The notes: a model not told the origin generated them from the letters alone. DNA of 32,000 nt from Methanosphaera stadtmanae DSM 3091 (GCF_000012545.1 NC_007681.1:570001-602000); one strand, 5' to 3'. Counted from the stretch's first letter, positions 2,608 through 26,591 are shown. Program-made: numbers and translations.

Positions 2608-4032
2608 CTACTGGAGTATCTTATTGTATTGTTGTTTTTTAATAATTTTTTTCTTTATTATTTTATCTATTCCTGTTCCATACTGTGCTGCTTTTTTAGG
2701 TCTATATGCAGCTTCTTTAGAAAGACCTAATTCATATGCAACATCACGTAGTATATGTTTTCTTATTTTATCATCACATGAATCTAATAGATAATCAATA
2801 GGCATGTGACTTGCCACATCTATCACATCTTTATCAAGAAATGGAACTCTTAATTCAACAGAATTACTCATAGTAGCCTTATCATCTCTTTCTAAGTTTA
2901 CATCATAGATGTTGTTAAGATCATGTGTTAATTCTTCATTAAGTAAGTCATGGTTTGTGTATTTCTTTTTGTATCTGTTGTATCCTGCAAATAATTCATC
3001 TGCTCCTTGTCCTGATAATATAACTTTATGATTATCCATATGTGCAAGATGAGATGTTAATTTAATTGTCATTCCCACACCTATTTTCATAAGATTTGTA
3101 TCTTCAATAGTATTTACAGTAGGATAAAAAGATTTTTCTATAATCTCCTGGTTAATTATTTGAATTGTAAGTGGTATATCTATATCATGTGCTATCTTTT
3201 TAGCATATTTTAAGTCTTGACTTGTTTCAACTCCCACACTATACAATGTAGTTTTAATACCTAATTTTTTAAGTATCAATGCAATTAGAGTACTGTCCAC
3301 TCCACCAGAAAAAAGTAGGGCAACTTCATCTAAATCTTGCACACGTTTTCTAACAGACCTAACAATAGCATTTTTAAGTTTCTCCTTAGCAACATCATAA
3401 TCATTATAAAAATCACATCTTTTATAACAATCCCTAATTTGTATAACATCACCATTATAAATCATGAATCTGGGATTTAGGTTATAAATATCATTGATAC
3501 CTATTTTTTGCAGTGCTTTTTGTTCTGATGCAAATGCAAATTTATCACAATTACTTCCATAGTATAATGGTTTAACACCTACATTATCACGTACAACAAC
3601 ATAGTCTTTTCCATCACTTACACAAAAAGCATAATCTCCATCAAGTAAATCAATACTCTTTAAAATGGCTTCTTTTAAGTTATCATGATAATTATGTTCA
3701 ATGAGTTTTAAAATAACTTCACAATCAGAATTACTACTTAAATCAAAATCATATTTACTTATTAATTCTTTATAATTATATATTTCAGCATTAGATACTA
3801 AAACAAGATTTTCTGACATGAAAGGTTGTAATTCATCACAACCAACAATAGATAATAAATTATGAGCAATTATAAAACTTGAATCTTCACAATCTAAAAT
3901 ATCATTATTTAAATAAATTTTACCCCTACTATATACACCACATCCATCTGGACCTCTATGCTTTAGTGTATGTAGCATATTAATTATATCTGACTTAACA
4001 TTTTCTCCAACAACACCAATTATAGAACACAT
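2608..4032 (-). CDS. asnB: Asparagine synthase (glutamine-hydrolysing) family amidotransferase
   Basis: 474 aa. MCSIIGVVG gives the N-terminal nucleophile Cys2 of class-II glutamine amidotransferases. LFSGGVDSTLIA is the PP-loop ATP pyrophosphatase motif. Confidence 0.85.
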   Translation of the reverse strand: MCSIIGVVGENVKSDIINMLHTLKHRGPDGCGVYSRGKIYLNNDILDCEDSSFIIAHNLLSIVGCDELQPFMSENLVLVSNAEIYNYKELISKYDFDLSSNSDCEVILKLIEHNYHDNLKEAILKSIDLLDGDYAFCVSDGKDYVVVRDNVGVKPLYYGSNCDKFAFASEQKALQKIGINDIYNLNPRFMIYNGDVIQIRDCYKRCDFYNDYDVAKEKLKNAIVRSVRKRVQDLDEVALLFSGGVDSTLIALILKKLGIKTTLYSVGVETSQDLKYAKKIAHDIDIPLTIQIINQEIIEKSFYPTVNTIEDTNLMKIGVGMTIKLTSHLAHMDNHKVILSGQGADELFAGYNRYKKKYTNHDLLNEELTHDLNNIYDVNLERDDKATMSNSVELRVPFLDKDVIDVASHMPIDYLLDSCDDKIRKHILRDVAYELGLSKEAAYRPKKAAQYGTGIDKIIKKKIIKKQQYNKILQ

Positions 4033-4098
4033 AAATAATCAAACCTAGAAAAATATTTAATTAAAAAAAAAGAATTGGGTGGTTAAATAGTTTAATAA

Positions 4099-4380
4099 TT
4101 AAATTACAACGTAGTTGAGTAAGAAAATCCATACAGTCATCCATACAAGGTAATATAGAAGAACTCCATTTGAAATCCATGAACTTAATGATATTTTTTC
4201 CCTACCATATCTACTTTCAGCATATTTTCCAAGACCATATACTATTACAACAGAGATTATAACTCCGAGAAACTCATTAGTTATTGGTAAAATACCTTTC
4301 ACAGTAAATAAGTATGATATTATTCCAGCAAATACTCCACCTATAAGATGTTCATAAGACATTATTGTTATTTCATCCAT
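4099..4380 (-). CDS. Small integral membrane protein, unknown function
   Basis: 93 aa with three hydrophobic stretches: LIGGVFAGIISYLFTV, FLGVIISVVIVYGLG, VLLYYLVWMTVWIFLLNYVVI. I recognise no family. Confidence 0.55.
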   Translation of the reverse strand: MDEITIMSYEHLIGGVFAGIISYLFTVKGILPITNEFLGVIISVVIVYGLGKYAESRYGREKISLSSWISNGVLLYYLVWMTVWIFLLNYVVI

Positions 4381-4465
4381 TTTATCAACTATTTTAAAAA
4401 TTTTTCCCTTAAATTAATATTGTTATAAATTATGTATATCATATCTAATATAGTTTTGTTATTTA

Positions 4466-7400
4466 TTATAGAAATTTTTTATAAATATCCATATATTCAT
4501 CAGCCATTTCCTTAGTAGTTTTAAAAGTAATGTCTTTTACTTCATTTGCAACACGCAAATACCTTTCTTCATCATCAAATATGCTGATAATCTCATCATA
4601 TGCCTCTTTAGGATTATTTGATAGTAAAAATCCTCCACCATTCCTATGAATTCGCTCACCTGGAGCACCAATATCAATACTAATAACAGGTAATCCACAA
4701 CTCCATGATTCACTTAGTGTATGACAGTATGTTTCAGGCCATATTGAAAATATTGCCATTGCATGTGGATTAATATCATGTACTAACTTACAAAATTCAC
4801 TTCTTTTATATGTTCCATGAAGGACACATACCTCATCTAAGCCTAATCTACCATCAACATCACCTAGAATATGTAGTTCAAGACGATTATTAACATCATA
4901 CTTCTTAAGATTTTTAATAAATACTCCGCCCTTACTAGGTCCAATATTACCTGGAATTACTATTTTAATTGGCTTATTTTTAACTATTTTTGGAACATTT
5001 ATAGTATCTGGTGTTTTTAGATCACGTCCATGTTCAATAATATTAATGTTGTCCTTTATTTCTGGATAAAACTCACCATATATATCTACAGCTGAGGGAG
5101 ATGTTGTTATAAATGTATCACAGTAGTTAAACATGTCACCCATAGCAGCTCTCCATGTTCCCACATATTTCTTAAGTAATGGAATACCATAATTTGTTGA
5201 AATACTACACTGTCTATTTTTAGCACTCATATCAATAGGACTACAGTGTCCTCCACAATACTCTTTAGAATTATCAATAAGATTATGTGATGGACATACA
5301 TAGTAGAAGTCATGGAATGAGAATATAACTGGAAGTCCTAACTTCTTAGCAGTATATACAATATCAAGTGAATGTTTTATAAGATGTCTAACATGTATAA
5401 TATCAATATGTAACATTTTTAGAATATTGAAGTAGAACTTATTAAACTCTGGTATGAATGGAGTTTTAATAGTATACTCTGTTTCAATATCAAATGAATA
5501 TAATGGTTTAAAATGGGATAAAAACTCATAATCTTCTTTAACATCATCATTTGCTTCAAATGAACTGTATTTATATACTTTTAATTCTTTAGAGTTTGAT
5601 GTTAACATGTAAACATCCATATACTTACTTATATGTTTCATTAAATCAGTACTAGTGTATAATGTACCACCTTTACCCTCATGTATCACATACAATATAC
5701 GTTTTCTATTAAATTGAATGTTATTTTCATGTTCAAGATATAATTTAATATTATCACGTATCTTCTTATACTCATTTAATTCAATGAAATTATCTATTCT
5801 GGCCTTATATTCTGGAAATTTACGTCCTAAATGTTCTCTGTTTATCTTTAATAATTCATTTTTTTCATCACCAAATGAAACATTATGATTATGGAAGATA
5901 TATGTGGACATATCAATTACATTTTGCCACCCATTTTCTATTAAACGCATACAAAAATCATTCTCTTCACAATAACCTCTACCATAACTTAAATCAAACT
6001 CTCCAACATCATCTATTGCTTCATGTTTAATAAACATACAAAAACCATTACCAGTAGGTGTTGTTATGATTTTATTCTCACTTTTCTTTTCAATAATATT
6101 GGCAGTTCCACTAATACCTAATCTTTCATCAATGGAATTATTCTCATTTAAGGTAGGTACTGAAAATGCTCCAGCATTATTTGATACAGGAGTTACTGTT
6201 GCAATATTTGAATTTGTATATGCTACAGATTTCATTTTTTCAAGCCAGTTATTACTAACAATAGTATCACTATTTAGTAGTACAACATCATTACTTGTTT
6301 TACTAAATCCAATATTCACATTCTTAACAAATCCCATATTATGTTTATTGTAAATAACAGTGATATTTTCTTCATCTTCCAGTGATTTAAGTAACTTTTC
6401 TATACGCCTATCACTACTACAATCATCTATTAATAACAATTCATATGGAGTTTTAGTATATTTTTTTACAGATTCAATACATTCTCGCAACTGGTCATAT
6501 GCATTGTATATTGGAATGATTATTGTAGTTGTTTGAGTTATAGCCTCAACTATGTTATCTACTTGTTTTTGTGTGTATATTGGATTTATTTTAACAATAG
6601 AACTATGTTCTAATCTTTGAAAATATTCATTTTTAAAGTAGAATATGTCACTTTCATCATACACGAAGTTATTCTTCCAACAAACATAGTTAAAACTTAA
6701 CTGATCTCTGAAACTATAATTTACAACTTCACTATACCAGTCTTCCATTACTTTAATAACATCCTTATCATGATGATTTCTAAAGAGAATTCCACTAGCA
6801 ACAAGCCCATTATGTTTAGGATAGCCTTCTTTTTGATATTTATCCATTTGTTTGTTAATGATTTCTGGTAAGTCCTTCTGAATTTCTATACATTTTTCTG
6901 CTTCATCATAGATACAATCTCTTTGTTCATGTGCAATTGCAAGAAGTTTATGATTTTTTGAATACTTATTAACATAATCCTTTAGACTATCATGTATATC
7001 GAAGTTTGTATCTATCCATATAGAATAATCATATTCATCTAAATATTTATGTGGAAGTATTTTATATCGTCTGGCCTTACGAACTTCATTAAGATTAAGT
7101 TCTTCCATATATCTGATTTCCCAGAAATTAGATTTTAAATTAGGATTATCTGTAAAACAGATATAATCAAAGTCATCCTCCACTACCTCTGGAGTCACAA
7201 GATCATCATAATGTCCTGTAAGAGCAGTGTAGACTACAACTTTCTTATTATCAAAGTTAATATAGTTAGATTTTTCATTAATTAATTCATTAAGTGAAGT
7301 ATCTGGATTGAATTTCTCCTCACACATATCAATTATCTTCTCTTTATCTAGAAATATACAGTCATTTAGTACATTAACTTCCATGGATTTGAAAAACTTA

Positions 7401-8998
7401 ATAAACAAAGTTAAATTAACAGTTCTAGGATGATGTAGTGCTGTGAAGTTTTTCATGTAAACTAGATCAATCTTATAATTCATAAACATATTGAAATATA
7501 ATCTAATGAAATATTCCTCATCATCAATATGTTTTGTAGACCATTTTTTTATGGTTATAAAATTTCCAATACCATCATATAAGTGTATTGAGACTTCTTT
7601 TAATGTTATTGCTAAGATGTAACATTCATAATTTCTAGCTAATTCATAAAATACATCATCAATATCTAAAGTACCATCAGAGTTATATGTTGTAACATAC
7701 AATATACGTTGTGATTTCTTATATGGTTTTATTAGTAAATCACATTCTTTTAGTTGATTTATAATCTTTGGAGATTTTACAAACTCATCCCAATCAGAAT
7801 ATATTTGAGGATATCTCTTAGATAATATCTTCTTGTTTTTCTTTTTTAATTCATTTGCAGTTTCAGATGTAAATGATGCATGTCTTCTATGATATACAAA
7901 TACTGTTTGATTTCTAAGATTTATCCATCCATTTTTTCTGGCTCTTGCTGTAAAATCAGTTTCTTCACCATAACCCTTATCAAATATTTCATCAAAGTAT
8001 CCTAAATCATCAATTGCACTTCTTTTAATAAATAAACAAAATCCATTACCTGTAGGAGCTTGAATGTATGTTGTATCACTTAACTTATTTAGTTGATAAG
8101 CATTTGAATTAAGAAACAATCTATCTGTACTTGTCCCTAATTTTTCAATGGAGATATCTGATGAATTAGAAAATGGTGTTACAGTAGCTATTTTATCATT
8201 AAGATATGCTGAGAAAACTAGTTGTGATAACCATTTAGGTGTTACTATTGTATCACTATTAAGAAGTACAACATCACCCTCTGCTAGTTTCATACCCATA
8301 TTCACATTTTTTATAAATCCTTGATTTTCCTTGTTATGAATTATCTTAACAAAATCAATTGACTCCATTGAATCTAGAAGATGTTTTATTCTATTATCAC
8401 TACTAGCATCATTAATTAGTATTAATTCATAATTAATATGAGTATTTAAAAGTACACTCTCTATACAATTACGTGTTTCATCATATGCATTGTATATTGG
8501 TATTATAATTGAAATCTTTTGTTTTAGAGTTTTTAGTATGTTTTTACAACTTCTTACATTGTATTTATTGTATGCATTTAGAAGTATGTGTTTCTTATTC
8601 AAGTATTCTGTAGTTGTGGTTGTTGCATATTTAATGTAGTGATATAGGGGATTGGTTGTTAATTTATTATATGGAATATTTTTAATGTATTCTCTTGTAT
8701 TAAATATATTACTTGGATTATATCCTAGGTAAACTCCATATACAATATAGTGAATAATAGGATCAAGATTATTCAATGAAGTTATATTATTTTCATTTAT
8801 ATAATAGTCAATATCAAATTCTATAGAATCATATATTACATCATAATAATCCATTATACGTGCTTTATTATCTAGTCCTACTAAATCATCATAATCTATT
8901 CTAGCATATCTATACAATCTTTTTTCCTTAATACCAAATCTTAAAAAATGAATCAATGGATTCATATTAGAAAGTTGTACATCCTTATATAAATCCAT
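4466..8998 (-). CDS. Giant five-module glycosyltransferase: N-terminal repeats, GT2, partial GT4-like lobe, DUF616-like, GT2, complete GT4-like
   Basis: 1510 aa. GT2-A at about 7875..8515 (ISIIIPIYNAYD...LILINDASSD...VVLLNSDT...GYGEETDF). Partial GT4-like lobe at about 7274..7712 (RILYVTTYNSDGTL...). DUF616-like module at about 6660..7247 (VVVYTALTGHYDDL...DYICFTDN...RRYKILPHKYL...SIWIDTNFDI). GT2-B at about 5875..6535 (TTIIIPIYNAYD...LLLIDDCSSD...VVLLNSDT...GYCEENDF). GT4-like at about 4466..5705 (RILYVIHEGKGGTL...PVIFSFHDFYYVC...ETYCHTLSESWSCGLPVISIDIGAPGERI). No TM segment seen. The annotated ATG is probably not the true N-terminus (see the 8999..9217 feature). Confidence 0.9.
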   Translation of the reverse strand: MDLYKDVQLSNMNPLIHFLRFGIKEKRLYRYARIDYDDLVGLDNKARIMDYYDVIYDSIEFDIDYYINENNITSLNNLDPIIHYIVYGVYLGYNPSNIFNTREYIKNIPYNKLTTNPLYHYIKYATTTTTEYLNKKHILLNAYNKYNVRSCKNILKTLKQKISIIIPIYNAYDETRNCIESVLLNTHINYELILINDASSDNRIKHLLDSMESIDFVKIIHNKENQGFIKNVNMGMKLAEGDVVLLNSDTIVTPKWLSQLVFSAYLNDKIATVTPFSNSSDISIEKLGTSTDRLFLNSNAYQLNKLSDTTYIQAPTGNGFCLFIKRSAIDDLGYFDEIFDKGYGEETDFTARARKNGWINLRNQTVFVYHRRHASFTSETANELKKKNKKILSKRYPQIYSDWDEFVKSPKIINQLKECDLLIKPYKKSQRILYVTTYNSDGTLDIDDVFYELARNYECYILAITLKEVSIHLYDGIGNFITIKKWSTKHIDDEEYFIRLYFNMFMNYKIDLVYMKNFTALHHPRTVNLTLFIKFFKSMEVNVLNDCIFLDKEKIIDMCEEKFNPDTSLNELINEKSNYINFDNKKVVVYTALTGHYDDLVTPEVVEDDFDYICFTDNPNLKSNFWEIRYMEELNLNEVRKARRYKILPHKYLDEYDYSIWIDTNFDIHDSLKDYVNKYSKNHKLLAIAHEQRDCIYDEAEKCIEIQKDLPEIINKQMDKYQKEGYPKHNGLVASGILFRNHHDKDVIKVMEDWYSEVVNYSFRDQLSFNYVCWKNNFVYDESDIFYFKNEYFQRLEHSSIVKINPIYTQKQVDNIVEAITQTTTIIIPIYNAYDQLRECIESVKKYTKTPYELLLIDDCSSDRRIEKLLKSLEDEENITVIYNKHNMGFVKNVNIGFSKTSNDVVLLNSDTIVSNNWLEKMKSVAYTNSNIATVTPVSNNAGAFSVPTLNENNSIDERLGISGTANIIEKKSENKIITTPTGNGFCMFIKHEAIDDVGEFDLSYGRGYCEENDFCMRLIENGWQNVIDMSTYIFHNHNVSFGDEKNELLKINREHLGRKFPEYKARIDNFIELNEYKKIRDNIKLYLEHENNIQFNRKRILYVIHEGKGGTLYTSTDLMKHISKYMDVYMLTSNSKELKVYKYSSFEANDDVKEDYEFLSHFKPLYSFDIETEYTIKTPFIPEFNKFYFNILKMLHIDIIHVRHLIKHSLDIVYTAKKLGLPVIFSFHDFYYVCPSHNLIDNSKEYCGGHCSPIDMSAKNRQCSISTNYGIPLLKKYVGTWRAAMGDMFNYCDTFITTSPSAVDIYGEFYPEIKDNINIIEHGRDLKTPDTINVPKIVKNKPIKIVIPGNIGPSKGGVFIKNLKKYDVNNRLELHILGDVDGRLGLDEVCVLHGTYKRSEFCKLVHDINPHAMAIFSIWPETYCHTLSESWSCGLPVISIDIGAPGERIHRNGGGFLLSNNPKEAYDEIISIFDDEERYLRVANEVKDITFKTTKEMADEYMDIYKKFL

Positions 8999-9217
8999 GT
9001 ACCATTTTGGATTAAAATATTTACTGGTAGGATATTCTTCTTTTCTTCCATTTTTTAAGAAATAATCAATAGGATCATCATCCTCTTTTATATTAGGATT
9101 ATGTTTTCTGTAGAATGTTTCATTGAAATATTTTGACTGTTCAATTAATTTATAATTAGATTCATAGCTAAATGTCTTATTATTTTTAGAATTATTTATA
9201 GTATCACATCCTATTGA
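8999..9217 (-). other. In-frame 73-codon extension upstream of the giant GT ATG, with no start codon, encoding further copies of the N-terminal repeat
   Basis: Hand translation of the minus strand upstream of the ATG at 8998 gives SIGCDTINNSKNNKTFSYESNYKLIEQSKYFNETFYRKHNPNIKEDDDPIDYFLKNGRKEEYPTSKYFNPKWY, continuing directly into MDLYKDVQLSNMNPLIHFLRFG. The nearest upstream stop is TAA at 9218-9220. There is no ATG, GTG or TTG in the extension. Confidence 0.6.
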
Positions 9218-9230
9218 TTAAAAATTCCTA

Positions 9231-9241
9231 TTTTTTATATA
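9231..9241 (-). promoter_or_regulatory. TATA-box-like element (TATATAAAAAA on the minus strand)
   Basis: An archaeal TATA-like A/T block. It is centred about 26 nt upstream of about 9211, which is the 5' end of the extended open frame. A second copy, ATATATAAAT, lies just upstream. Background AT-richness makes this weak. Confidence 0.3.
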
Positions 9242-9668
9242 TTATTTATATATCTTTTAATTAATTTAAAAGTAACTTTAAGAAAGTAGGTATAAAATAA
9301 GCACAAGTTTTTAAAAAGAGATTCTTTCACTAAAGAAAAATAGTAACTGAAGGAGTTCCTTCAATTATATCTTTCTCTAAAAAAACATAAGAAATTAAAA
9401 TTCACAAAAAAATAAAAACAACATAAAAAAATATTAAATAACCTTAAAAAAAGGTTCAATATTATTTTGGCTGCTAATATTATTTTTTCATAGTATTAAC
9501 TTAAATTAATACAATTTCTACTCTCTTATCTAGATTATTTAAATGTTTAGTATTTTTTTTAAAAAAATAGTACTAAAAAAATCCATGATAACATAGTTTT
9601 TTTTCTGTTGTATGATAAAATAGGTCTTTTTTCAAATATTCTAAAAAAATAAGTGAAAATACATGAAT

Positions 9669-12179
9669 TTAGTATTTTCCACTTTCAATTTCATCCCTTG
9701 TTAAATCCCATATTGCTTGTTTATAACCGAATTTCTCACGTTCAGAAGAACTCCATCTATTTTTAACAAACATTAAATCATGATGTTTATCAGATTTTTC
9801 TTGAAGTTGTGTTGTTGCTTTTTGTAGTTTATGATATACAATAGCATTAGAAACATGATAAATCTTATAATTTAATACATTTCTTATGAAATTAGAGTAA
9901 ATCACATCAGATCTATAATGTCTTCCATTTTCAGCATCAAGTCCTAATGATTTATCATATACATCACGTCGTATATATACACAGAAAAATGCTACAAAGG
10001 AAACCTCTGTATAAATACCATTATGATATAATGGTAGGTTAATTACATTTTTATGATGGGCTGATAAATTCACATCACACATGTATTGAGGATTTGCATA
10101 GGGAACATGAACATCTATTGTTTTTGTATTGGCAGGAAGTACTTGTTGTGGAACTGTAATTCCACAATTTTCCAGAGTATATGCAGCTTCTTGTAAGTAT
10201 TCCATTGCACCTTCAGTAAATACTGCATCATTATTTAGAAGAACAATATCATTATCCTTTTTAGCTATTTCTATTGCCTGATTAACAGCGTATGTGAATC
10301 CATAATTTTCATGGTTTAAGATTAGTTTTATCTTATTTTCCAGTTTAAGTTTTCTTAGATAATTTTTAACATCATATGATGAATTATTATCAACAACCAC
10401 CACTTCAACATATTTAGAATCTAATTTAAATAAACTCTCAAGACATATTTTAAGATCATCCAATGCTTCATAACTAGGAATTATTACAGAAACACCCCTT
10501 GTTAGTTTAGGAGCTCTTTTACCAATTTTTTCTAAACGTTTTTCTTGTTTTTCATGAACTTGTTTTATTGTATAACTTAATTCAGGATTACTTGTAATAG
10601 TATTATCAGCTAAATCAAAGTAATAATTTGATAATATAACAGGTACGGAATATGTTTTTGCAAAGGTGGAATATTTAAGTATTAAATCCCAGTCAACACA
10701 TTTAACTAATGATTCATCAAATCCACCATATTTAAGATAAACATCTCTTGTATGAGCATAGGCATTTAAATCAATATAATTTCTATTAGAAAGAAGTCCC
10801 TTATTTAAGGATGCAAATCTCACATATTTAAGATTAGTTTTACTTTCCTCAAATACATATTGACCACAATACAATGCACTTGCATCTTTATTTACTCTAA
10901 AAGCACCTACCATGGCTGAAATATATCTATTATCCCAATCATTATCAGAATCAAGATACATGATATATTTACCTTTACTTATATTAAGTCCCTTATTTCT
11001 TGAAGCAGATATTCCCAGATTTTCCTTATTACGTATGAGTTTAATTCTTTTATCCTTAATCTTTAAAATATTCTCACATGTTTTATCACTACTTCCATCA
11101 TCAATAATTATTAATTCAAAGTTCTTATATGTTTGATTTAGTACTGATTTAATAGCATTTGTTATTAAGCCTTCCCTATTATATACAGGCATTATAATAG
11201 ATACTAGTGGTTTTTCTTCAGGTACTTGTTTTATAAGATAATTTGCAATATTTTCCATTGTTGCAAAGATTTTCTTATCAGATTCATTAAAGGGGAATGC
11301 TACTATTGGATTTGTTATAGAATATGATGTGTATCTTGAAAATTTATTTTCAAAGTCAGGTTTTTGCCATTTAAATGTTAATTTATCTAGTATAAATCCA
11401 TCAGTATCTTTTAATAAAATCTCATGTTCAATACCATCAAGAAAATCCATTGGAATTGTAAATTTAAATGCATGTTTTCCTTCATTAATACCATTTCTTT
11501 TTAAGTCTGCCCTATAATTTGAAGGTTTTATTGTGAATTTTATATTATCTATTGATATTATAACGTTTATTGGATGATTGTTTCCAATTTCTGCAGCCCA
11601 ACCTGAAAGCTTATCCTTTGAAGGCTTATTAAACAATCCTTTTATTTTTCTATTTTTAGTTTTATTTCTTTTTGGTTTCGTTGTTATATTTTTATTTTCA
11701 AATTGAGGTATGTTTTCATGGTGTGGAAGGGATATTTTTCTATTTTCACTTTTTCCATATAATAGATAGTGGATTAATGGATTTATTTTTAATGATTTTA
11801 AATCAGGATTTAATTTAATATATTCTTCTGAATTAAATAATGGTGATGGATTGTATCCTTTTTTACTTCCATAGTATATGTAGTGTAATAATACATCCAT
11901 TCCATCTTTTCTTACTGATTCATGCTTATTTAAATAATAACCTACATTAAATAAGTCACTTTTTTTCATTGCATTATAACCTTTAACAGTTAATAACATG
12001 TTTTTAAATCCACCACAACGACTCTGATTTAAAAATAATGATAATGGATATAATTTTGATGTTAATCTTTGTTTAATTGATCTGTTATTGTTATTGTTGT
12101 ATGATTCTTCATATATTGCAGATAAAAGTTTATTATAATCTGCAGTGTTATCTATATTGTTATTAACTATTTTTACCAC
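9669..12179 (-). CDS. Dual-GT2 glycosyltransferase with N-terminal repeat module and a beta-rich SGWA domain
   Basis: 836 aa, GTG start in the ORF track. Repeat module aa 36-148 (11736..12074). Domain SGWAAEIGNN...RADLKRNGINEGKHAFKFTIP. GT2-A at about 10600..11205 (VSIIMPVYN...LIIIDDGSSD...YLDSDN). GT2-B at about 9800..10495 (VSVIIPSYE...VVVVDNNSS...VLLNNDA). No TM segment seen. Confidence 0.9.
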   Translation of the reverse strand: MVKIVNNNIDNTADYNKLLSAIYEESYNNNNNRSIKQRLTSKLYPLSLFLNQSRCGGFKNMLLTVKGYNAMKKSDLFNVGYYLNKHESVRKDGMDVLLHYIYYGSKKGYNPSPLFNSEEYIKLNPDLKSLKINPLIHYLLYGKSENRKISLPHHENIPQFENKNITTKPKRNKTKNRKIKGLFNKPSKDKLSGWAAEIGNNHPINVIISIDNIKFTIKPSNYRADLKRNGINEGKHAFKFTIPMDFLDGIEHEILLKDTDGFILDKLTFKWQKPDFENKFSRYTSYSITNPIVAFPFNESDKKIFATMENIANYLIKQVPEEKPLVSIIMPVYNREGLITNAIKSVLNQTYKNFELIIIDDGSSDKTCENILKIKDKRIKLIRNKENLGISASRNKGLNISKGKYIMYLDSDNDWDNRYISAMVGAFRVNKDASALYCGQYVFEESKTNLKYVRFASLNKGLLSNRNYIDLNAYAHTRDVYLKYGGFDESLVKCVDWDLILKYSTFAKTYSVPVILSNYYFDLADNTITSNPELSYTIKQVHEKQEKRLEKIGKRAPKLTRGVSVIIPSYEALDDLKICLESLFKLDSKYVEVVVVDNNSSYDVKNYLRKLKLENKIKLILNHENYGFTYAVNQAIEIAKKDNDIVLLNNDAVFTEGAMEYLQEAAYTLENCGITVPQQVLPANTKTIDVHVPYANPQYMCDVNLSAHHKNVINLPLYHNGIYTEVSFVAFFCVYIRRDVYDKSLGLDAENGRHYRSDVIYSNFIRNVLNYKIYHVSNAIVYHKLQKATTQLQEKSDKHHDLMFVKNRWSSSEREKFGYKQAIWDLTRDEIESGKY
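11844..11924 (-). repeat. 81-nt inverted-repeat arm (partner at 23548..23628), 80/81 identical
   Basis: The reverse complement of 11844..11924 reads catgaatcagtaagaaaagatggaatggatgTattattacactacatatactatggaagtaaaaaaggatacaatccatca. It differs from 23548..23628 at one base (T versus C at 23579). It encodes HESVRKDGMD(V/A)LLHYIYYGSKKGYNPS in both genes. Confidence 0.9.
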
Positions 12180-12516
12180 CTCATATATTCAACTTTAATT
12201 AATTATTTAATTGAAATATAGAAATACATACCCTTAATATCTTTCTGTATGATGCTTTTAAAAATAAAACTTTTAGAAACTAAGCATTCATCTATATTTA
12301 TGTTTAGATTATTATATTAAAGTATTTTTTTATTTTATTAAATAATTATAGAAACTTATTTAATTTTAATAAAACTAAAATAGTTATTAAGAGTAGCACA
12401 TATAATAAATCAAAAAATAATTATTTCATGATTCTTTAAGTTATTCTATAAATACTAGAAAAACAATCTAAGATATGATTTAATTAATTAAGGGACAAAA
12501 AAAGGGATAAGATAAC

Positions 12517-13197
12517 ATGTCATTTATATCTAAAATAGAACAAAAATTGTTGAATTTAAGTGATAGTTATATTTTTTATAAAAATAATTATGAAAAATTA
12601 ACTACACTAAATAACAACAAAAATGAAACAATAAAGGCACTTAAACAAGAAAATGATTTATTAACTAAGAAAAATGAAACTGATCTAAGAAATAACACAC
12701 ATCTAACTGATGTGAATGAAAAACTCATCAAAGAACATAAATCATTAAACAAGGATATAGTACGGCTTGAAGAGGAAAAAAAATCTTTATTAAATGAAAA
12801 TATACAAAAAGATAAAACTCAAGCAGTGTATAAAAGTAACTTTGAAAAATTATCTCTTTTAAATGAAAATAAGAATGAAACTATTTCAACACTTAAACAA
12901 GAGAATGAAATGTTACTTGAAGAAAATGCAAGATTATCCCAAGAAAATAACAATCTTCTAAGAATAAATAGAGACATGGCAGAATTAAATAAAAAATATG
13001 CTATTATTAGTGAAAATATAAAGTCAATAAATGAGAATATAGCTTCAAAATTCAATGAAGTAAATAAACAATACTCTGCACTTGTTAATAAGATAGACTT
13101 TAACTTCGTTAATACATATAACAATATTAAAGAAATTAAAGATGTTAGTACTATAATGAATGATAACATAGATGAAATTAAAAAAATAGAAAAATAA
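12517..13197 (+). CDS. Coiled-coil protein with an internal duplication, unknown function
   Basis: 226 aa, rich in N/K/E/L, with heptad-like spacing throughout. No TM segment, signal peptide or catalytic motif. Two 34-aa segments are about 62% identical: aa 21-54 (12577..12678, YKNNYEKLTTLNNNKNETIKALKQENDLLTKKNE) and aa 105-138 (12829..12930, YKSNFEKLSLLNENKNETISTLKQENEMLLEENA). GGGAT lies upstream of the ATG. Confidence 0.7.
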   Translation: MSFISKIEQKLLNLSDSYIFYKNNYEKLTTLNNNKNETIKALKQENDLLTKKNETDLRNNTHLTDVNEKLIKEHKSLNKDIVRLEEEKKSLLNENIQKDKTQAVYKSNFEKLSLLNENKNETISTLKQENEMLLEENARLSQENNNLLRINRDMAELNKKYAIISENIKSINENIASKFNEVNKQYSALVNKIDFNFVNTYNNIKEIKDVSTIMNDNIDEIKKIEK

Positions 13198-13207
13198 GAA
13201 AAATTCC

Positions 13208-13233
13208 TTTTTTTTAGTTCTTTCTCTTTTTTT
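13208..13233 (+). terminator. Oligo-T tracts (T8 and T7) downstream of the coiled-coil gene
   Basis: T8 at 13208..13215 and T7 at 13227..13233 follow the TAA at 13195-13197. Archaeal intrinsic termination uses oligo-T runs. The AT-rich background lowers confidence. Confidence 0.3.
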
Positions 13234-13235
13234 AC

Positions 13236-15872
13236 TTATTCTGATTTTATTATGGGAATATTTGTATTAATAATGCCCTTTTTATCATTGATATTATATT
13301 CTACATTTATCATATGATTTTTATCTTCATAGAAATTAACATTATCATCTAAATACTTTGTTTTAAAGAGCTTTGTCCAAAGAAGTGTGTTGTAAATAGT
13401 ATCACTTTTTTCAACAATACCTGAAATCATATTCATATTATCCTTACGTATAGATCTAAACATGTTTTTTATAGCAGTGTTAACATAGAATAATTCTGGA
13501 TTTAAAAACATAACATATGGTGTTGTAATATAGTTTGGAATTATATTATATAGTTGTGTTTCATCATAATCTCTATTTGTTCTAATATATTCTATATTAG
13601 GAAATATCTTTGAGTACTTCTTAATATTCATTGTATCAGTAATTTTTGAATTATTATCAATAAATACAAGTCTTAATAAAGGAAATTCAAAGGTTTGTTC
13701 TGCTATATTATGAATAACTTCAAATATTTCCTTCTCTAACATATTTCTAGCATATATTACTATGGATATTGGTATGGTTATCCTACTTTTATCAGGTTTA
13801 TCAATTGATTCTTTAATATATGTGTAGTAGAGTAGGTTATTCTTATTAAGTGACTGTATAATATCCTTATCAAGATGATTTTTTCCAATACATTCTCCTA
13901 TAAACTCTTGTGTAGATTTAAAATATTCTAGCATATATTGTGAATCTATTTTATATAATGTTTTTCTTAAAATATCCATCATATAATTATAGAATTTTTC
14001 ATGATATGCTTCATATAATGGTGTTACTTGTCTAAATATATTTAACATATCCTTAAGCATGGAAATATTATCACACATTGTATTATCTCTACATGCATCA
14101 TATGTTTTTTCATGTATTCTTTGATTATAATAACTGTTCACTGTTATTTTCACATTTTTAGCTTTTAAAAATGTGATTATTGAAAATAAATTATCACAGT
14201 AAGTTCTTCTTGGATTAAATCTAATACTGTTATTTTTAATAAATGATGTTAAGTATAGTTTACCTGTAGCACTAGAATAATTTTTAAATAAAACTGATAA
14301 ATCAATATTAGTATTTTTAATAAGTTTATTTTCATATTCTTTTAGATAATCATAGATAGTATCATTTTTATTCTCAATTTTTGACTCTTTTTTAGTGTAT
14401 AATGTTCTATTAAAGAAGAAAATGTCGAGATTATTTTCTTGGGATATTTTTGTAGCAGTATCTAATGCCATACTATCTAGCCAGTCATCACAGTCAACAA
14501 AAGTAAGGTACTTACCTTTTGCATATTTTATTCCAATATTTCTTGTTGCACTAACTCCATGATTTTCCTTTATATGAATAACACGCATACGTTTATCAAT
14601 TTTAGAATGTTGTTTTAATATGTTAAGAGAGTTATCTGTTGAATTGTCATCAATACAAATAATTTCCATATTTTTAAGACTCTGATCATGTATACTATTT
14701 AAACAACTGTTAAGATATCTTTCACCATTATACACTGGAATTATTACAGATACAAGAATATCATCAAAATCTTTACTATATATGTCTTTTCTAGGTTTTT
14801 CTATTGGATTTGTCTTAAATATGAGTTTTTCATTTCTAAAATCAATATATTCATAGTATGCATTAGTATAATCATTATTTGCAATGTGTTTTATTATTTT
14901 ATGATATTTATGATTTTTTCGTGTTTTATTATTTGAGACATACTCTTTAAAGAATACATGTAAATCTTCTACAAAATTCTTAAATTCATCCCTATCAAGT
15001 GTGGTATTTAATACATATTTAGTAATATAATTAACATCATCTAATAAAATATGACAAGCTTCGGGTAATTCTTTCTTAAATAACTCATAACAATAAGTAT
15101 AAACTTTTATTAATATTTTGAGTTTATCATAAGAATAATCTAAGCTTTTTGAGAAACCATTTGTTGTATCTCTGTTATATATAACAATTGGTTCATTAAC
15201 AAATATAATTCCATTAGCCTTAAATAAGATTTTGAAATTAAATATTTTATCAGAACTTATTTTTAAACCTTCTTCAAATTCCAAATTATTTTCAATAAGA
15301 AAACTTCTTCTATATATTTTAGTACAGAGGTATGGAGAAATTCCTAGAAGATTAGGATTTTCATCTATGGTTCTAATCTTTGTTTTATAATGAATTATAT
15401 TTTGGTTTTCCCAGTTAACTTTTTTATTTGTGTATGTGTCAATGTAATTACCATTAACAACATCCACATCTTCTGCTTCAATTATATTGTATAGAAATTC
15501 ACAAGCATTACTAAGATATTTATCATCATCATCTAAAAACATCACATACTTACCAGTTGCATGTTTTAGACCGTTATTACGTGTTGGACCATCATATTTT
15601 TTTTGTTTATTATTAAATAATAATACATTAGAATATTTATTTTTATATTCTTTAATTAAATCAACACCACTTGTTTTTGTTGACTTATCATTTACAAATA
15701 TAATTTCTAGTTTTTCAAAACCTATTGTTTGATTTAATAAAGAATCAAATGCTTCTTTAATATCATCTTTTGTAGTATTATATACAGGTATTATAATTGA
15801 AATTAAAGGTATTTCTTTAGGTTTTTTCTGAATAATGTCACTTATTTTAGAAAATAATGCCATGGTAATCAC
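13236..15872 (-). CDS. Three-module GT2-type glycosyltransferase (two intact modules, one motif-degenerate)
   Basis: 878 aa. Module 1 at about 15168..15809 (ISIIIPVYN...NQTIGF...IIFVNDKS...MFLDDDDKY). Module 2 at about 14103..14759 (VSVIIPVYNGERYL...IICIDDNSTD...FVDCDDW). Module 3 at about 13236..13790 (ISIVIYARN...EQTFEF...VFIDNNS...MFLNPELFY). The track start is GTG at 15872, overlapping the upstream stop as GTGA. An alternative ATG at 15863 is preceded by GAGTGAT. Confidence 0.85.
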   Translation of the reverse strand: MITMALFSKISDIIQKKPKEIPLISIIIPVYNTTKDDIKEAFDSLLNQTIGFEKLEIIFVNDKSTKTSGVDLIKEYKNKYSNVLLFNNKQKKYDGPTRNNGLKHATGKYVMFLDDDDKYLSNACEFLYNIIEAEDVDVVNGNYIDTYTNKKVNWENQNIIHYKTKIRTIDENPNLLGISPYLCTKIYRRSFLIENNLEFEEGLKISSDKIFNFKILFKANGIIFVNEPIVIYNRDTTNGFSKSLDYSYDKLKILIKVYTYCYELFKKELPEACHILLDDVNYITKYVLNTTLDRDEFKNFVEDLHVFFKEYVSNNKTRKNHKYHKIIKHIANNDYTNAYYEYIDFRNEKLIFKTNPIEKPRKDIYSKDFDDILVSVIIPVYNGERYLNSCLNSIHDQSLKNMEIICIDDNSTDNSLNILKQHSKIDKRMRVIHIKENHGVSATRNIGIKYAKGKYLTFVDCDDWLDSMALDTATKISQENNLDIFFFNRTLYTKKESKIENKNDTIYDYLKEYENKLIKNTNIDLSVLFKNYSSATGKLYLTSFIKNNSIRFNPRRTYCDNLFSIITFLKAKNVKITVNSYYNQRIHEKTYDACRDNTMCDNISMLKDMLNIFRQVTPLYEAYHEKFYNYMMDILRKTLYKIDSQYMLEYFKSTQEFIGECIGKNHLDKDIIQSLNKNNLLYYTYIKESIDKPDKSRITIPISIVIYARNMLEKEIFEVIHNIAEQTFEFPLLRLVFIDNNSKITDTMNIKKYSKIFPNIEYIRTNRDYDETQLYNIIPNYITTPYVMFLNPELFYVNTAIKNMFRSIRKDNMNMISGIVEKSDTIYNTLLWTKLFKTKYLDDNVNFYEDKNHMINVEYNINDKKGIINTNIPIIKSE

Positions 15873-18322
15873 TCTTTTTTAAGTATTATAATTGGAACAT
15901 TCACTATTCCCTTTCTATTATACATCCTCTTTTCAACAAAAATATCATTTTCTTTCATATAAAACTTAATATTTGCTTCTTTTAAGAATTTAATCTTAAA
16001 TATCTTTGTCCATATTAACTCATTAGAACCATCATCACCACTATCTTCAATAATACCTGATGCAACATGCATATTACCCTTACGTACAGTTCTGAAAATA
16101 TATTTTATGGTATTTGGTATGTATGAATATTTTTTATTATAAAACATCACAAACTGTGTGTCAATATCATCTATTAATTTATTATATAGTTTATCTTCAT
16201 CTAAATTATTATCAACTACCATGTACTCAATATTTGGATATATCTTTGTATAATTCTTAATAACATGTTCTACATCACTATTCTTCGATGCATACTCAAT
16301 AACAAACAACACTTCAATAAAAGAAAATCCAAAACTTTGATTTATTAAATTAGAAACTACTCTATTTATTTTATCAATACTATATTTATCACATTTAACA
16401 ACAACAGTCACAGGCCTATTTGGAATAATATTCTTTTGTAGTTTAGTTATAGGATAATTCTTACTTTTAAGAGAGGAGATAACATAATTATAGAATTCCC
16501 TGTGTTCTTTACTAATATTTTTAATTATAATATCATTGAGTTCATATTTAATAATACAACATTCAACAATAGCTTGTATCTGAATAAAGCATGAATTCTT
16601 ATATGTGTGTTCAATCTTTTTAAAGTTAGATTGTAGTATGTCCATCATAAAATCTATTTGTTTTATAAATTCATTTTTATTTGTTTCACAATACTTAAGC
16701 ATATCATATACTAGAGCCATTTGATTTAAATTCTCAGGTTCCATAATACCTTTTTTAAGATATACTAGTGGATTAATTAGATAGGTGTTTTTTTCTGTTT
16801 TAAAGAAAATATTCTGATTATCTACTAGGAATTTTTTTGTAAACATCTTATTCCATATTTCAAGATCCATATATTTCTTATTATAATCATTTATATTAGT
16901 ATGGGCCATGTTGTATTCATTTTCTTTCATGTTTCTAAATAAATTCTTTAAAACATGATCCTTATATACATGATTTTTATCAAGTAATGTAATATATGAA
17001 CAATCTGTCATATTAATACCAATAGAATAAATATCCAATAATGACATATCCTCTTCTAGTTGAATATAATGGATGTTGTAGTATGTTTTATCATATATTT
17101 TAAGTAACTTTTGAACATCCTTTAATCTTTTAGTGGATGATATGAAAATAATATCTAAATATGAAAATCCCATTGTCTGATTAATAAATGAATTTAAAAT
17201 TTCATTTAATCTACTAACTGTAATATCATCACAGTAAACAATTGAAGCAATTGGAGTATTTAGGGAAATGTTCTCCTGTATGTCTTTAATAATATTATTT
17301 TCTGAATTCATAGATTTAACTATTAAATTATATGTTCTTAGATTATTTTTACTTAAATTATATTTAATATCATCATTTAAATCATATTCAACTATGTATT
17401 TTTCAATAAGACTCTTTGTTTTATTAAAGAAATCATTCTTAAATTCATTATCAATTTTCTGAAATCTATTTAGAAGAGTATGAATCATAAAATCATAGAA
17501 GGATAACTTGTATTTCATATAATAGGAATCATTACTTTTTAAAATTGAAAAAATTTCATCTAAAACATTATGAATATCCATCATGTCTTTTTTTGTATTG
17601 CTTGTTAATGAATCTGAATGTACACGTCTTTTATAGAAATATTCATCAACAACAGATACACGTCTTGCTTTTAAAAATGTTTTAATAAAAAAAGGATTAT
17701 CTTCATACATTGTAGTTTCATTGAATTTAATATTATTTTCCAATAAAAAAGATCTTAAATATAACTTACCTGGAGCAGTTACAGGTATTTTAAAAAGTAT
17801 ATTTGCAGAGATATCATCATGATTAAAAACTCTATTATAATATTTTTCCAAGAAATTCATAGAATAAGTTTCTGTTTTATATAATAACTTTGTAATATTG
17901 TTCATGTTAATAAGTTTAAATAATAATAAGTCAAGATTATTCTCTTCAGATTTTTTCAATACACATTCCAATGTATTTTCATCTAGCCAGTCATCAGCAT
18001 CAAGAAATGTAATGTATTTTCCTCTTGCATGTTTTATTCCAATATTTCTAGAAGCTCCAGGACCAAGATTGGTAGTATTGGTAAATACACATACACGTTT
18101 ATCAAAACGTACATGATTGTTAATTATTTCCAAGGTCTTATCTGTAGATGCATCATCAATACATATAATTTCTATATTTTTCAGTGTTTGTTTTCGTGCA
18201 GTATTTAAACATTTTTCAATGTATTTATCACTATTATATGCAGGAATAATTATTGAAACATCAATAGAATCATTTTTTGGTGGATTATCTTCTGTTTTAG
18301 TATTAGAATTCATATGAATCAA
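15869..18322 (-). CDS. GT2 glycosyltransferase with two further degenerate GT2-like modules; tandem paralog of the downstream gene
   Basis: 817 aa. Module 1 at about 17618..18265 (VSIIIPAYNSDKYI...IICIDDASTD...FLDADDW). Module 2 at about 16763..17260 (ASIVYCDD...NQTMGF...IIFISSTKR...TLLDKNHVY). Module 3 at about 15869..16425 (VTVVVKCDK...NQSFGF...VLFVIEYAS...MFYNKKYSY). The C-terminus matches the 878-aa protein (IWTKIFKIKFL versus LWTKLFKTKYL). The track start is TTG at 18322; ATG at 18313 (MNSNTKTED) is more likely. Confidence 0.85.
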   Translation of the reverse strand: MIHMNSNTKTEDNPPKNDSIDVSIIIPAYNSDKYIEKCLNTARKQTLKNIEIICIDDASTDKTLEIINNHVRFDKRVCVFTNTTNLGPGASRNIGIKHARGKYITFLDADDWLDENTLECVLKKSEENNLDLLLFKLINMNNITKLLYKTETYSMNFLEKYYNRVFNHDDISANILFKIPVTAPGKLYLRSFLLENNIKFNETTMYEDNPFFIKTFLKARRVSVVDEYFYKRRVHSDSLTSNTKKDMMDIHNVLDEIFSILKSNDSYYMKYKLSFYDFMIHTLLNRFQKIDNEFKNDFFNKTKSLIEKYIVEYDLNDDIKYNLSKNNLRTYNLIVKSMNSENNIIKDIQENISLNTPIASIVYCDDITVSRLNEILNSFINQTMGFSYLDIIFISSTKRLKDVQKLLKIYDKTYYNIHYIQLEEDMSLLDIYSIGINMTDCSYITLLDKNHVYKDHVLKNLFRNMKENEYNMAHTNINDYNKKYMDLEIWNKMFTKKFLVDNQNIFFKTEKNTYLINPLVYLKKGIMEPENLNQMALVYDMLKYCETNKNEFIKQIDFMMDILQSNFKKIEHTYKNSCFIQIQAIVECCIIKYELNDIIIKNISKEHREFYNYVISSLKSKNYPITKLQKNIIPNRPVTVVVKCDKYSIDKINRVVSNLINQSFGFSFIEVLFVIEYASKNSDVEHVIKNYTKIYPNIEYMVVDNNLDEDKLYNKLIDDIDTQFVMFYNKKYSYIPNTIKYIFRTVRKGNMHVASGIIEDSGDDGSNELIWTKIFKIKFLKEANIKFYMKENDIFVEKRMYNRKGIVNVPIIILKKE

Positions 18323-18509: not shown

Positions 18510-19169
18510 TTAAATATCCAATTCAGATTTATATAACTGGCATAAATCTGTGAAAGGACATTCAATATGTTGGGGATTAATAGGCTTACAAATATTTTGA
18601 CCAAACTGAACCATTAAATCATTAATTGGAAGCCAATATTCCTGTGGAACAATCTCTCTTAAAACCTCTTCTGTATCTTCTGGTTTATCTGTATGAACAA
18701 GACCGAGTCTATTGGATATTCTATGAACATGAACATCAACAGGAATAGCATCCTTCTGAAAACCAAATACTAAAACACAGTTAGCAGTTTTACGTCCAAC
18801 ACCAGGTAATTTAAGTAATTCTTCAAGAGTATCTGGAACAACACCATCATATTCCTCTAATAAAATATTAGATACTTCCTTGATACGTGCAGCTTTAACA
18901 TTATAAAATCCTGCCTGTCTTACAAGATTAGCAATATCATCAACAGGAGCATCTGCTATTTCTTCCATGGTATGATACACATTGAATAAATTTTCTGTAG
19001 CTTTATCAGTATTTTCATCCCTTGTTCTCTGGGATAAAATAGTTCTTATGAGAACTTCATATGGTGTTTGTTCAAGAAAAGTTCTGCGAGTAAATATTTC
19101 CTCAAGTTTATCAACAATAAATTTAATTTCATCAACAGTATAATTACCCTTCATATTTTCTTTAATCAC
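18510..19169 (-). CDS. nth: Endonuclease III (HhH-GPD DNA glycosylase/AP lyase)
   Basis: 219 aa. ILSQRTRDE, helix-hairpin-helix [26 protein letters not shown], and a C-terminal Fe-S motif region. GTG start preceded by AGGGTGA. Confidence 0.9.
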
Positions 19170-19189
19170 AAACTCACCCTCTTATATTC

Positions 19190-20470: not shown

Positions 20471-20525
20471 AATTATTACCTCGGAAATTCATTTAAAAAA
20501 AGAGATAAAAGGTGGGGGAGTTTAG

Positions 20526-26261: not shown

Positions 26262-26591
26262 TTAATAATAATAATGAATAGGTATTCCAACAAGTAGTGT
26301 CATGATTAATAAGACAATTATTATAAGAAGCAACACTACTATTAATTGTAAATTCTTATTTATATAATTTATTGAACTTTTCTTTAGAAATTCTTCTTCA
26401 TTATAATTATAATTGTCATAAGTTCCATGAATATGTTGATTTTTGAATTCTTGAGTAGTATATTGATTATAATTATGAGTTTGTTGATTATATGTATTTT
26501 CATCTGTTTTTAATGTTTGTAAAGTATTTCCACAGATTTTACACATATTCTGATTTTCATCATTTTCAGTTCCACAATTAGAACATTTCAT
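26262..26591 (-). CDS. Zinc-ribbon protein with an N/Q/Y-rich linker and a C-terminal TM anchor
   Basis: 109 aa. MKCSNCGTENDENQNMCKICGN gives a CxxC...CxxC motif. C-terminal LQLIVVLLLIIIVLLIMTLLVGIPI. Strong AAGGAGAA Shine-Dalgarno sequence upstream of the ATG. Confidence 0.7.
   Translation of the reverse strand: MKCSNCGTENDENQNMCKICGNTLQTLKTDENTYNQQTHNYNQYTTQEFKNQHIHGTYDNYNYNEEEFLKKSSINYINKNLQLIVVLLLIIIVLLIMTLLVGIPIHYYY

Follow-up and report, generated by a model that had tools for sequence, protein, structure and literature searches.

Five large glycosyltransferases (GTs), here A1510, B836, C878, D817 and E736, and a coiled-coil protein, CC226, are encoded in a 32-kb window (the whole stretch of DNA analysed) of the 1,767,403-bp chromosome of Methanosphaera stadtmanae DSM 3091, a human gut archaeon with pseudomurein. 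We conclude that these genes probably form a mosaic island of soluble, bacterial-type, multi-module GTs that serve a cell-surface glycopolymer pathway dependent on an ABC transporter, and that this pathway is split between two loci. The evidence comes from the domain content of the proteins, their lack of transmembrane (TM) helices, the degeneracy and conservation of their pseudo-GT modules, the gene neighbourhoods of their relatives, a fusion of the coiled coil to a GT2 domain and fold similarity to solved structures. The original prediction for this stretch had placed all six genes in a single cytoplasmic complex.

Glycosyltransferase modules and a candidate exporter outside the window

Modules were called by Pfam on entire proteins and on cut-out segments, by all-against-all BLAST and by alignment of the 11 GT2 modules. 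Each protein carries two to five GT modules, and together the five contain eight motif-intact GT2 modules, three degenerate GT2 modules, one TOD1_MUCI70/DUF616 domain, one full and one partial GT4 and one CgeB-like module (Table 1), with Pfam E-values of 1e-20 to 1e-71, far past chance. The GT open reading frames (ORFs), module counts and motif states of the original prediction were thereby reproduced by ORF calling, Pfam and alignment, and its modules are indeed related to GTs. No TM helix was found in the five GTs, as had been predicted, the highest Kyte-Doolittle mean over 19 residues being 1.39. Named GT equivalogs of NCBIfam (TuaG, PgaC, WcaA) matched only below threshold, so that assignment to a particular sugar or linkage is not possible, and no Pfam family was found for the N-terminal HY-repeat modules, for A1510 420-585 or for B836 175-320. 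All five genes (Msp_0492, 0493, 0495, 0496 and 0500) had already been listed as GTs and as candidates for lateral transfer (Lurie-Weinberger et al., 2012; PMC3445992).

The other ORFs of the 32-kb window encode no ABC exporter, Wzx/Wzy, polyprenyl-phosphate transferase or AglB oligosaccharyltransferase, in agreement with the original prediction. However, its extension of this absence to a cytoplasmic assembly line lacking export machinery is not supported. Relatives of E736 cluster with ABC2_membrane and ABC_tran genes and two small GT2 genes in three genomes (L022, L023, L025): that of Methanobacterium sp. CWC-01, that of another Methanosphaera species and a further one from the Methanobacteriaceae. 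The same clusters encode a UDP-sugar dehydrogenase, RmlA/RmlC and a GT4+GT2 protein of 1101-1242 aa that is homologous to the core of A1510, and two of them (L022, L025) also encode a CoA_binding_3 + Bac_transf priming enzyme. A comparable block exists in M. stadtmanae, in which Msp_0204/0205 are a polysaccharide/polyol-phosphate ABC permease and ATPase, noted as laterally acquired, Msp_0206/0207 are GTs, Msp_0208 is a sugar transferase and Msp_0210 a UDP-glucose dehydrogenase (PMC3445992); the gene order of Msp_0204-0210, taken from the table in that paper, matches that of the exporter clusters of relatives. In M. smithii, Msm_1313 and Msm_1312, given as homologues of Msp_0492 and Msp_0500, are in one GT region with the ABC genes Msm_1325/1326 (PMC3445992). 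The exporter block that adjoins relatives of E736 and of A1510's core, together with Msp_0204-0210, suggests that the exporter half of the pathway lies outside the window. Judged by these neighbourhoods, the lack of export machinery is probably a window artefact and the pathway is probably split over two loci in M. stadtmanae. Claims of a 'missing exporter' made from a 32-kb window need whole-genome context.

Also encoded in these clusters (L025, 550-2073 and 17947-19527; L023, 5770-7609) are a PMT_2-like GT-C protein, an EpsG-family membrane protein, and DUF1616 and DUF4012 proteins, which are candidates for a transfer step outside the membrane.

The neighbourhoods also bear on the origin of A1510. 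The 1101-aa GT beside the L023 ABC exporter is 47% identical to A1510 808-1510 and 44% identical to A1510 145-518; as both stretches align to one GT2+GT4 unit, A1510 contains an internal duplication of this unit in which the first GT4 is truncated. A1510-type genes occur across Methanosphaera, with full-length relatives of up to 2484 aa at 45-58% identity, and Methyltransf_24 domains are seen in these relatives only and not in the window. B836 (aa 9-826) is 49% identical to a 1024-aa GT adjoining an A-like gene in Methanosphaera sp. ISO3-F5, while the GT2+CgeB core of E736 has relatives at 45-60% identity across Methanosphaera, Methanobacterium and Clostridia. The three proteins share the HY module, whose motif [ND]P[LI].H[YF] is repeated three times in A1510 and twice each in B836 and E736, and which is also present inside the 1242-aa Methanobacterium GT of L022. 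Between B836 and E736 the HY module is 62% identical, as compared with 25-36% for the remainder of the two proteins, which suggests that this module was recently exchanged within the genome.

Gene content across Methanosphaera

A1510-type genes adjoin EMC6-asnB-ACT-hom in Methanosphaera sp. ISO3-F5, M. cuniculi and WGK6, with no CC-, C- or D-like genes; an orthologue of B836 (49%) is present in one of these three loci, that of ISO3-F5. Three full-length relatives of C878 were found (99%, 55% and 47% identity). The closest (L016) has window-like synteny, including the nth-aroA-valS order, and the other two adjoin TGT-pyrI, together with a D-like gene or with two single-module GT2 genes, and lack A, B and E. 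In L029 a different cluster, of GT2, UDP-galactopyranose mutase (GLF) and CC genes, lies on the other side of valS-aroA-nth, and GT islands of differing content are seen on either side of nth-aroA-valS in different Methanosphaera species. Since A-type genes occur without C, D and CC, and D/C genes without A, B and E, the island is a mosaic at a species-variable site and its six genes are not one inherited unit. Within the island, the GC content of 20-24% over CC226/C878/D817 (window 12001-18000), against 25-28% in A1510 and 30-34% in aroA/valS, is consistent with separate origins of its parts.

These data weigh heavily against the proposal that all six genes encode one complex of undescribed architecture, which would assemble a glycan wholly in the cytoplasm and need neither a lipid carrier nor an exporter or priming enzyme. 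Such a complex was suggested by the lack of an exporter or priming GT in the window, by the modules common to several proteins, by the coiled-coil protein and by the conserved pseudo-modules. Nevertheless, A-like genes and D/C-like genes each occur without the other set, genes for an exporter and a priming enzyme adjoin E736 homologues and homologues of A1510's core and exist in the M. stadtmanae genome, and the architecture, of which the original prediction knew no case in archaea, is described in bacteria (PMC11231755). With the orthologues thus scattered, synteny already largely refutes the six-gene complex, and we regard it as very improbable.

The same variability raises a different alternative, in which there is no system at all: the region beside valS-aroA-nth and asnB would be a hot spot of recombination and lateral transfer that has gathered unrelated GTs for several glycans. 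On this view the coiled-coil ORF is a bystander that evolves fast, and the degenerate modules are relics. This would account for the published listing of all five GTs as lateral gene transfer candidates (PMC3445992), the lower GC over 12-18 kb, the variation of GT content at the same sites in other species and the scarcity of full-length relatives of C878, of which there are only three. It is weighed below against the behaviour of the pseudo-modules and of the coiled-coil family.

Conserved pseudo-GT modules in C878 and D817

Alignment showed that 8 of the 11 GT2 modules keep PxYN, the (D/N)D-x-S Asp and DxD/LNxD. The remaining three, C878 module 3 and D817 modules 2 and 3, are degenerate: DxD reads NPE, DKN and NKK, PxYN and N.G..RN.G are gone, and both degenerate D817 modules also lack the nucleotide-binding Asp. 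The combination of nucleotide-binding Asp and DxD that marks a catalytic GT-A domain is thus intact in eight modules and broken in these three. In Pfam the two weak GT2 modules of D817 score 34.7 and 20.1 bits; the latter, the third module, is under the cut-off of 23.3 and is 35% identical to C878 module 3.

The end of D817 overlaps or abuts the start of C878, so that the two genes probably form one operon. D817 18-517 aligns with C878 370-856 at 34.5% identity, indicating that 'active GT2 - helical - pseudo GT2' is, at the level of alignment, a conserved block. The orthologous D817/C878 pair is kept in L014 and L016. Between orthologues of ∼55% overall identity, the dead module 2 of D817 is 60% identical, as compared with 61% for the active module, and the third modules of C878 and D817 are 52-53% identical, as compared with 60-62% for active modules. 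The degenerate modules of the orthologues likewise lack the catalytic motifs, and the NQT.GF insert of C878 module 1 is present in all three dead modules. The similar degrees of conservation, and the shared loss of motifs, suggest strongly that the pseudo-GT modules are being maintained rather than decaying, a new point that bears out the attention paid to them in the original prediction. Proteins with chained GT2 modules are common, 52 of the 120 best C878 relatives carrying three or four motif-intact GT2 modules, and it is the dead modules that distinguish the archaeal proteins. To our knowledge, conserved pseudo-GT-A modules have not been described in the prototypes of bacterial ABC transporter-dependent glycan assembly.

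The AF2 model of C878 (mean pLDDT 82.9) shows three alternating beta/alpha domains parted by helical regions, the degenerate third module being alternating beta/alpha as well. A top Foldseek match to this model is K4 chondroitin polymerase (K4CP), across both domains (∼600 columns, E 7e-22). Individual C878 units match TarP and truncated TarS 1-349 with target-normalised TM-scores of 0.70-0.76 (E ∼1e-16 to 1e-17), and full-length TarS and RmlT with target-normalised TM-scores of ∼0.4; the nearest solved sequences or folds also include CgT/GalT1, heparosan synthase and the N-terminal region of TagF. By sequence and fold, the nearest solved relatives of C878 are soluble enzymes of wall or capsule synthesis, acting ahead of ABC export. 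TarS and TarP of Staphylococcus aureus and RmlT of Listeria monocytogenes are soluble and decorate a lipid-linked polymer in the cytoplasm before its export by the TarGH ABC transporter, and each unit of C878 matches their combination of a GT-A domain with a helical acceptor-binding region (∼330 aa); with an intact DxD, this combination is found in C878 units 1 and 2 and D817 unit 1. In contrast to C878 and D817, which chain two to three units including dead ones, these enzymes are single-module and oligomerise by their own C-terminal domains. K4CP and the Pasteurella heparosan synthase PmHS2, which match by sequence and are the top Foldseek hits over ∼600 columns, carry two active GT-A domains in one TM-less chain; by analogy, B836 and modules 1-2 of C878 could plausibly synthesise an alternating disaccharide. 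The likeness is limited by a loose superposition of domains (TM-score ∼0.3), the lack of a third, inactive domain and an identity of 14-17%.

Relatives of C878/D817 in Firmicutes lie in glycopolymer loci with Bac_transf and amino-sugar genes or with LicD and cytidylyltransferase genes. One of them, L004, adjoins LicD and a cytidylyltransferase-oxidoreductase, a hint, if an indirect one, of a poly(ribitol/glycerol-phosphate) acceptor. A scan of species-representative genomes with C878 returned no archaeal locus and only GT2 matches in Firmicutes.

Solved relatives of C878 also raise the alternative that the GTs, above all D817 and C878, sequentially O-glycosylate large Asn/Thr-rich surface proteins in the cytoplasm before secretion, with no need of a lipid carrier or exporter. 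Such a pathway would resemble that of the streptococcal serine-rich-repeat adhesins (GtfA with inactive GtfB, dGT1/GalT1), and the pseudo-GT modules would bind the protein substrate; a pseudo-GT partner has its precedent in the streptococcal pathway. The best sequence match of C878 module 2 to a solved structure is GalT1/CgT of the Fap1 pathway (5hea, E 7.5e-29; Foldseek rank 7), and no exporter lies near any C/D-type locus seen. However, nearest neighbours among GT2 enzymes are a poor guide to the acceptor, and TarP, TarS and RmlT are structurally equal matches; the bacterial relatives lie in Bac_transf/LicD polysaccharide loci, and in L029 the family is tied to UDP-galactopyranose mutase, an enzyme typical of polysaccharides. 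Neither an adhesin gene nor an accessory-Sec-like one is adjacent, and of the features of the Fap1/GspB systems (adhesin, accessory Sec, GtfA/GtfB core) none is present in the window or in related loci, the GalT1 match to GT2 being the only point of contact. We therefore consider protein O-glycosylation improbable as compared with a lipid-linked surface glycopolymer.

A coiled-coil family tied to GT2 genes

In its AF2 model CC226 is one continuous helix (residues 3-225, pLDDT 92) that would measure ∼33 nm if straight. A conserved N-terminal motif of 30 aa (MSFISKI..KL.N.S.SY.FYK.NYEKL) is followed by a variable coiled coil, and the C-terminal region of ∼45 aa is again conserved. An exhaustive search of 1.84 billion representatives gave 13 hits, comprising fragments of CC226 itself and a few relatives of 100-150 aa; by this measure the family is tiny and confined to Methanosphaera, which is also a new point. 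Pfam and NCBIfam found no catalytic domain in CC226, and no homology to WbdD or WbbB was found.

The family adjoins GT2 genes in all five contexts seen, including the window and L016. The CC gene lies 19 bp upstream of a GT2 gene on the same strand in L015, diverges from a GT2 pair at TGT-pyrI in L026-L028 and is part of the GT2/GLF cluster in L029. At TGT-pyrI the 152-aa CC gene is directly followed by a gene for a 479-aa coiled-coil protein (L026 6316-7755, L027 3247-4686, L028 1785-3224) that has the same N-terminal motif (profile E 2.8e-12), and then by a gene for a 793-aa protein with a GT2 N-terminus of the C878-module-1 type. In L029 two adjacent paralogous GT2 proteins of 512 and 504 aa (at 5469-7007 and 3742-5256, respectively; 42% identical) begin with the CC N-terminal motif and ∼150 aa of coiled coil, fused to a GT2 of the C878-module-1 type. 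The CC part of the fusion aligns at 42 bits, as compared with 14.7 +/- 2.4 for shuffles, and a profile built from stand-alone CC members only matches the two fusions at E 3e-7 and 2e-8. In the pair (gt512/gt504) a motif-intact protein stands beside a degenerate one. Of the evidence that the rod works with these enzymes, this Rosetta-stone fusion is the strongest, and it supports the link between coiled-coil protein and GTs made in the original prediction.

The hot-spot alternative fares poorly against these observations. At 47-55% overall identity the conservation of pseudo-modules is like that of active modules, the D-C pair stays a tight operon in three lineages, the CC family always adjoins GT2 genes and is fused to one, and the HY module is common to A, B and E. 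A collection of unrelated genes is thus unlikely, and the mosaic island of a glycopolymer pathway is the reading that we prefer.

The coiled coil varies in length between strains. The CC gene encodes 226 aa in the window and 354 aa in the 99%-identical strain (L016 10381-11445); the difference is one clean 384-bp in-frame indel (window breakpoint 12858/12859), the other 681 bp being identical. The indel lies at a 15-bp direct repeat, both ends beginning TTAAATGAAAATAAG. The exact 226-aa sequence is missing from a collection of 15 billion proteins. Two other candidates for membership of the family were rejected: a 276-aa coiled-coil ORF near the L025 ABC cluster is unrelated (16.5 bits), and the N-termini of C878 orthologues (FSKIKNVISNLSN) gave no match at E<10 to the profile of stand-alone CC proteins.

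A putative split pathway for a surface glycopolymer

TM-less multi-module GTs accompanied by an extended coiled-coil protein, described as 'a characteristic marker' and sometimes fused to GT2, belong to ABC transporter-dependent glycan assembly in bacteria (PMC11231755). Shared modules, TM-less multi-module GTs and a coiled coil are thus the signature of a known bacterial strategy. The O-polysaccharide systems of this kind include WbdA-WbdD of Escherichia coli O9a and Klebsiella pneumoniae O3, WbbB of K. pneumoniae O12 and ORF6 of O7 (PMC11231755). Their GTs, like the five described here, are cytoplasmic and TM-less, with two to three catalytic modules each, variably split and fused, and they are accompanied by a coiled-coil protein; in O7 the GT2 modules are C-terminal to the coiled coil, as in gt512 of L029. 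They also have a Wzm/Wzt-type exporter and a polyprenyl-phosphate priming enzyme, and such a block lies beside relatives of E736 and of the A1510 core. The archaeal case differs in its host, which has pseudomurein and no outer membrane, in the distant locus of exporter and priming genes, and in CC226, a bare rod with no terminator enzyme, whose role in chain length is hypothetical.

We propose that the GTs, probably as peripheral membrane proteins, work on the cytoplasmic side of the membrane and use a glycan carried by polyprenyl phosphate as their substrate. The Bac_transf enzyme would start this glycan and a Wzm/Wzt- or TagGH-like ABC transporter would export it, both being supplied by the second locus, Msp_0204-0208. 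A1510, B836 and E736, united by the HY module, would form one sub-set, in which each catalytic module may add one linkage of the repeat unit; relatives of this sub-set adjoin genes for an exporter, a priming enzyme and dTDP-rhamnose/UDP-sugar synthesis. The D817-C878 operon would provide a second sub-set, composed of GT2+helical units like TarP, TarS and RmlT and of three conserved pseudo-GT-A modules, which are presumably non-catalytic and may serve as acceptor-binding or scaffolding domains. The CC226 rod would be the partner of D817-C878 in a complex, for oligomerisation or spacing. The suggestion in the original prediction that these enzymes build a surface polymer of a pseudomurein archaeon is supported to this extent.

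Several points weigh against this proposal. The exporter and priming genes are ∼290 genes distant in M. stadtmanae, Msp_0201-0223 are known here via a published table alone, and the use of that exporter by these GTs is guilt by association from other genomes. No exporter was found in any neighbourhood of the C878, D817 or CC226 type (L014, L015, L026, L029). The L025 cluster also has an EpsG-family membrane protein, which leaves room for a Wzy-type step. CC226 has no terminator domain (methyltransferase, kinase or Kdo-transferase), unlike every bacterial ruler protein, and so far no M. stadtmanae glycan is linked to these genes.

A molecular ruler in the bacterial sense, a coiled coil with a chain-terminating enzyme at its distal end, is not what CC226 encodes. 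It is conceivable, if doubtful, that CC226 is a terminator-less archaeal ruler or scaffold that docks GT2 enzymes via its N-terminal motif and C-terminal region, the 226- and 354-aa alleles changing the length or spacing of the surface glycan. The association of an active with a pseudo-GT-A module, fused within C878 and D817 and separate in the paralogues gt512 and gt504, where both are fused to the rod, would fit such a scaffold. If so, allele length would alter the surface glycan of an immunostimulatory gut archaeon.

The surface chemistry of M. stadtmanae, one of the two principal methanogens of the human gut, is essentially uncharacterised. The earlier study of the same genes treated them singly, for phylogeny, and did not deal with module architecture, pseudo-GTs, the coiled-coil family or a link between GTs and exporter (Lurie-Weinberger et al., 2012; PMC3445992). 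Placing them in a split pathway names, as hypotheses, the exporter and priming enzyme to pair with these GTs and the modules that catalyse. Pseudo-GT modules, active/pseudo pairing and a strain-variable coiled-coil partner could inform how chain length and acceptors are handled without a terminator enzyme, and the same three features may underlie strain-level surface variation in the gut.

Layout of the locus and minor observations

The island is flanked by hom-ACT-asnB-EMC6 on one side and by nth-aroA-valS on the other (Pfam), much as originally described. In strain DSM 3091 the identical counterparts of D817, valS and E736 are ABC56896, ABC56899 and ABC56900, and by the numbering of that strain CC226 is probably Msp_0494.

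Table 1. Genes and modules of the GT island, in window coordinates
Feature	Residues (aa)	Position (nt)	Strand	Assignment or remark
A1510 (Msp_0492), GT		4466-8998	-	1510 aa
A1510 HY-repeat N-terminal module	1-150	8549-8998	-	no Pfam family
A1510 GT2, first	161-373	7880-8518	-	Pfam
A1510 shortened GT4 N-part ('partial GT4')	427-518	7445-7720	-	matches N-terminal part of GT4 domain in relative
A1510 TOD1_MUCI70/DUF616	623-796	6611-7132	-	Pfam
A1510 GT2, second	825-~1030	5909-6526	-	Pfam
A1510 full GT4 (Glyco_transf_4 + Glycos_transf_1)	1184-1486 (Pfam)	4469-5710	-	
B836 (Msp_0493), GT		9669-12179	-	836 aa
B836 HY-repeat module	34-148	11736-12080	-	no Pfam family
B836 domain without family	175-320		-	Pfam: none
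B836 GT2, two, motif-intact		10650-11201, 9825-10490	-	Pfam
CC226, coiled-coil protein		12517-13197	+	226 aa
C878 (Msp_0495), GT		13236-15872	-	878 aa
C878 GT2+helical unit a		14823-15818	-	Pfam, strong
C878 GT2+helical unit b		13803-14768	-	Pfam, strong
C878 pseudo-GT2 module c		13239-13784	-	Pfam, weak, 37.5 bits
D817 (Msp_0496), GT		15869-18322	-	817 aa
D817 GT2+helical unit		17303-18274	-	Pfam, strong
D817 pseudo-GT2, module 2		16763-17260	-	Pfam, weak
D817 helical linker		16433-16762	-	
D817 pseudo-GT2, module 3		15872-16423	-	Pfam, weak
nth-aroA-valS housekeeping block		18510-23165	-	Pfam
E736 (Msp_0500), GT		23371-25581	+	736 aa
E736 HY-repeat module	8-122	23392-23736	+	no Pfam family
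E736 GT2		23833-24549	+	Pfam
E736 CgeB-like Glyco_trans_1_2		24628-25578	+	Pfam

The 670-bp spacer between A1510 and B836 (8999-9668; 22% GC) has no ORF of at least 40 aa; a tandem repeat of 18 bp, rich in A, occupies 9378-9430. The spacer is presumably a promoter region, which would make A1510 and B836 separate transcription units. Rfam and tRNA scans of the window gave no matches.

A protein with OB-fold and DHH domains is encoded a few genes from nth/valS both in the window (30187-31845, 552 aa) and in L029 (15408-17315, 635 aa); it resembles a RecJ-like nuclease and has no relation to the GT island. Downstream of E736 lie a 109-aa zinc-ribbon ORF (26262-26591), a 115-aa ORF without a family (26947-27294) and a 205-aa ORF (27397-28014) with only a weak match of coiled-coil type (CENP-H, E 0.008).

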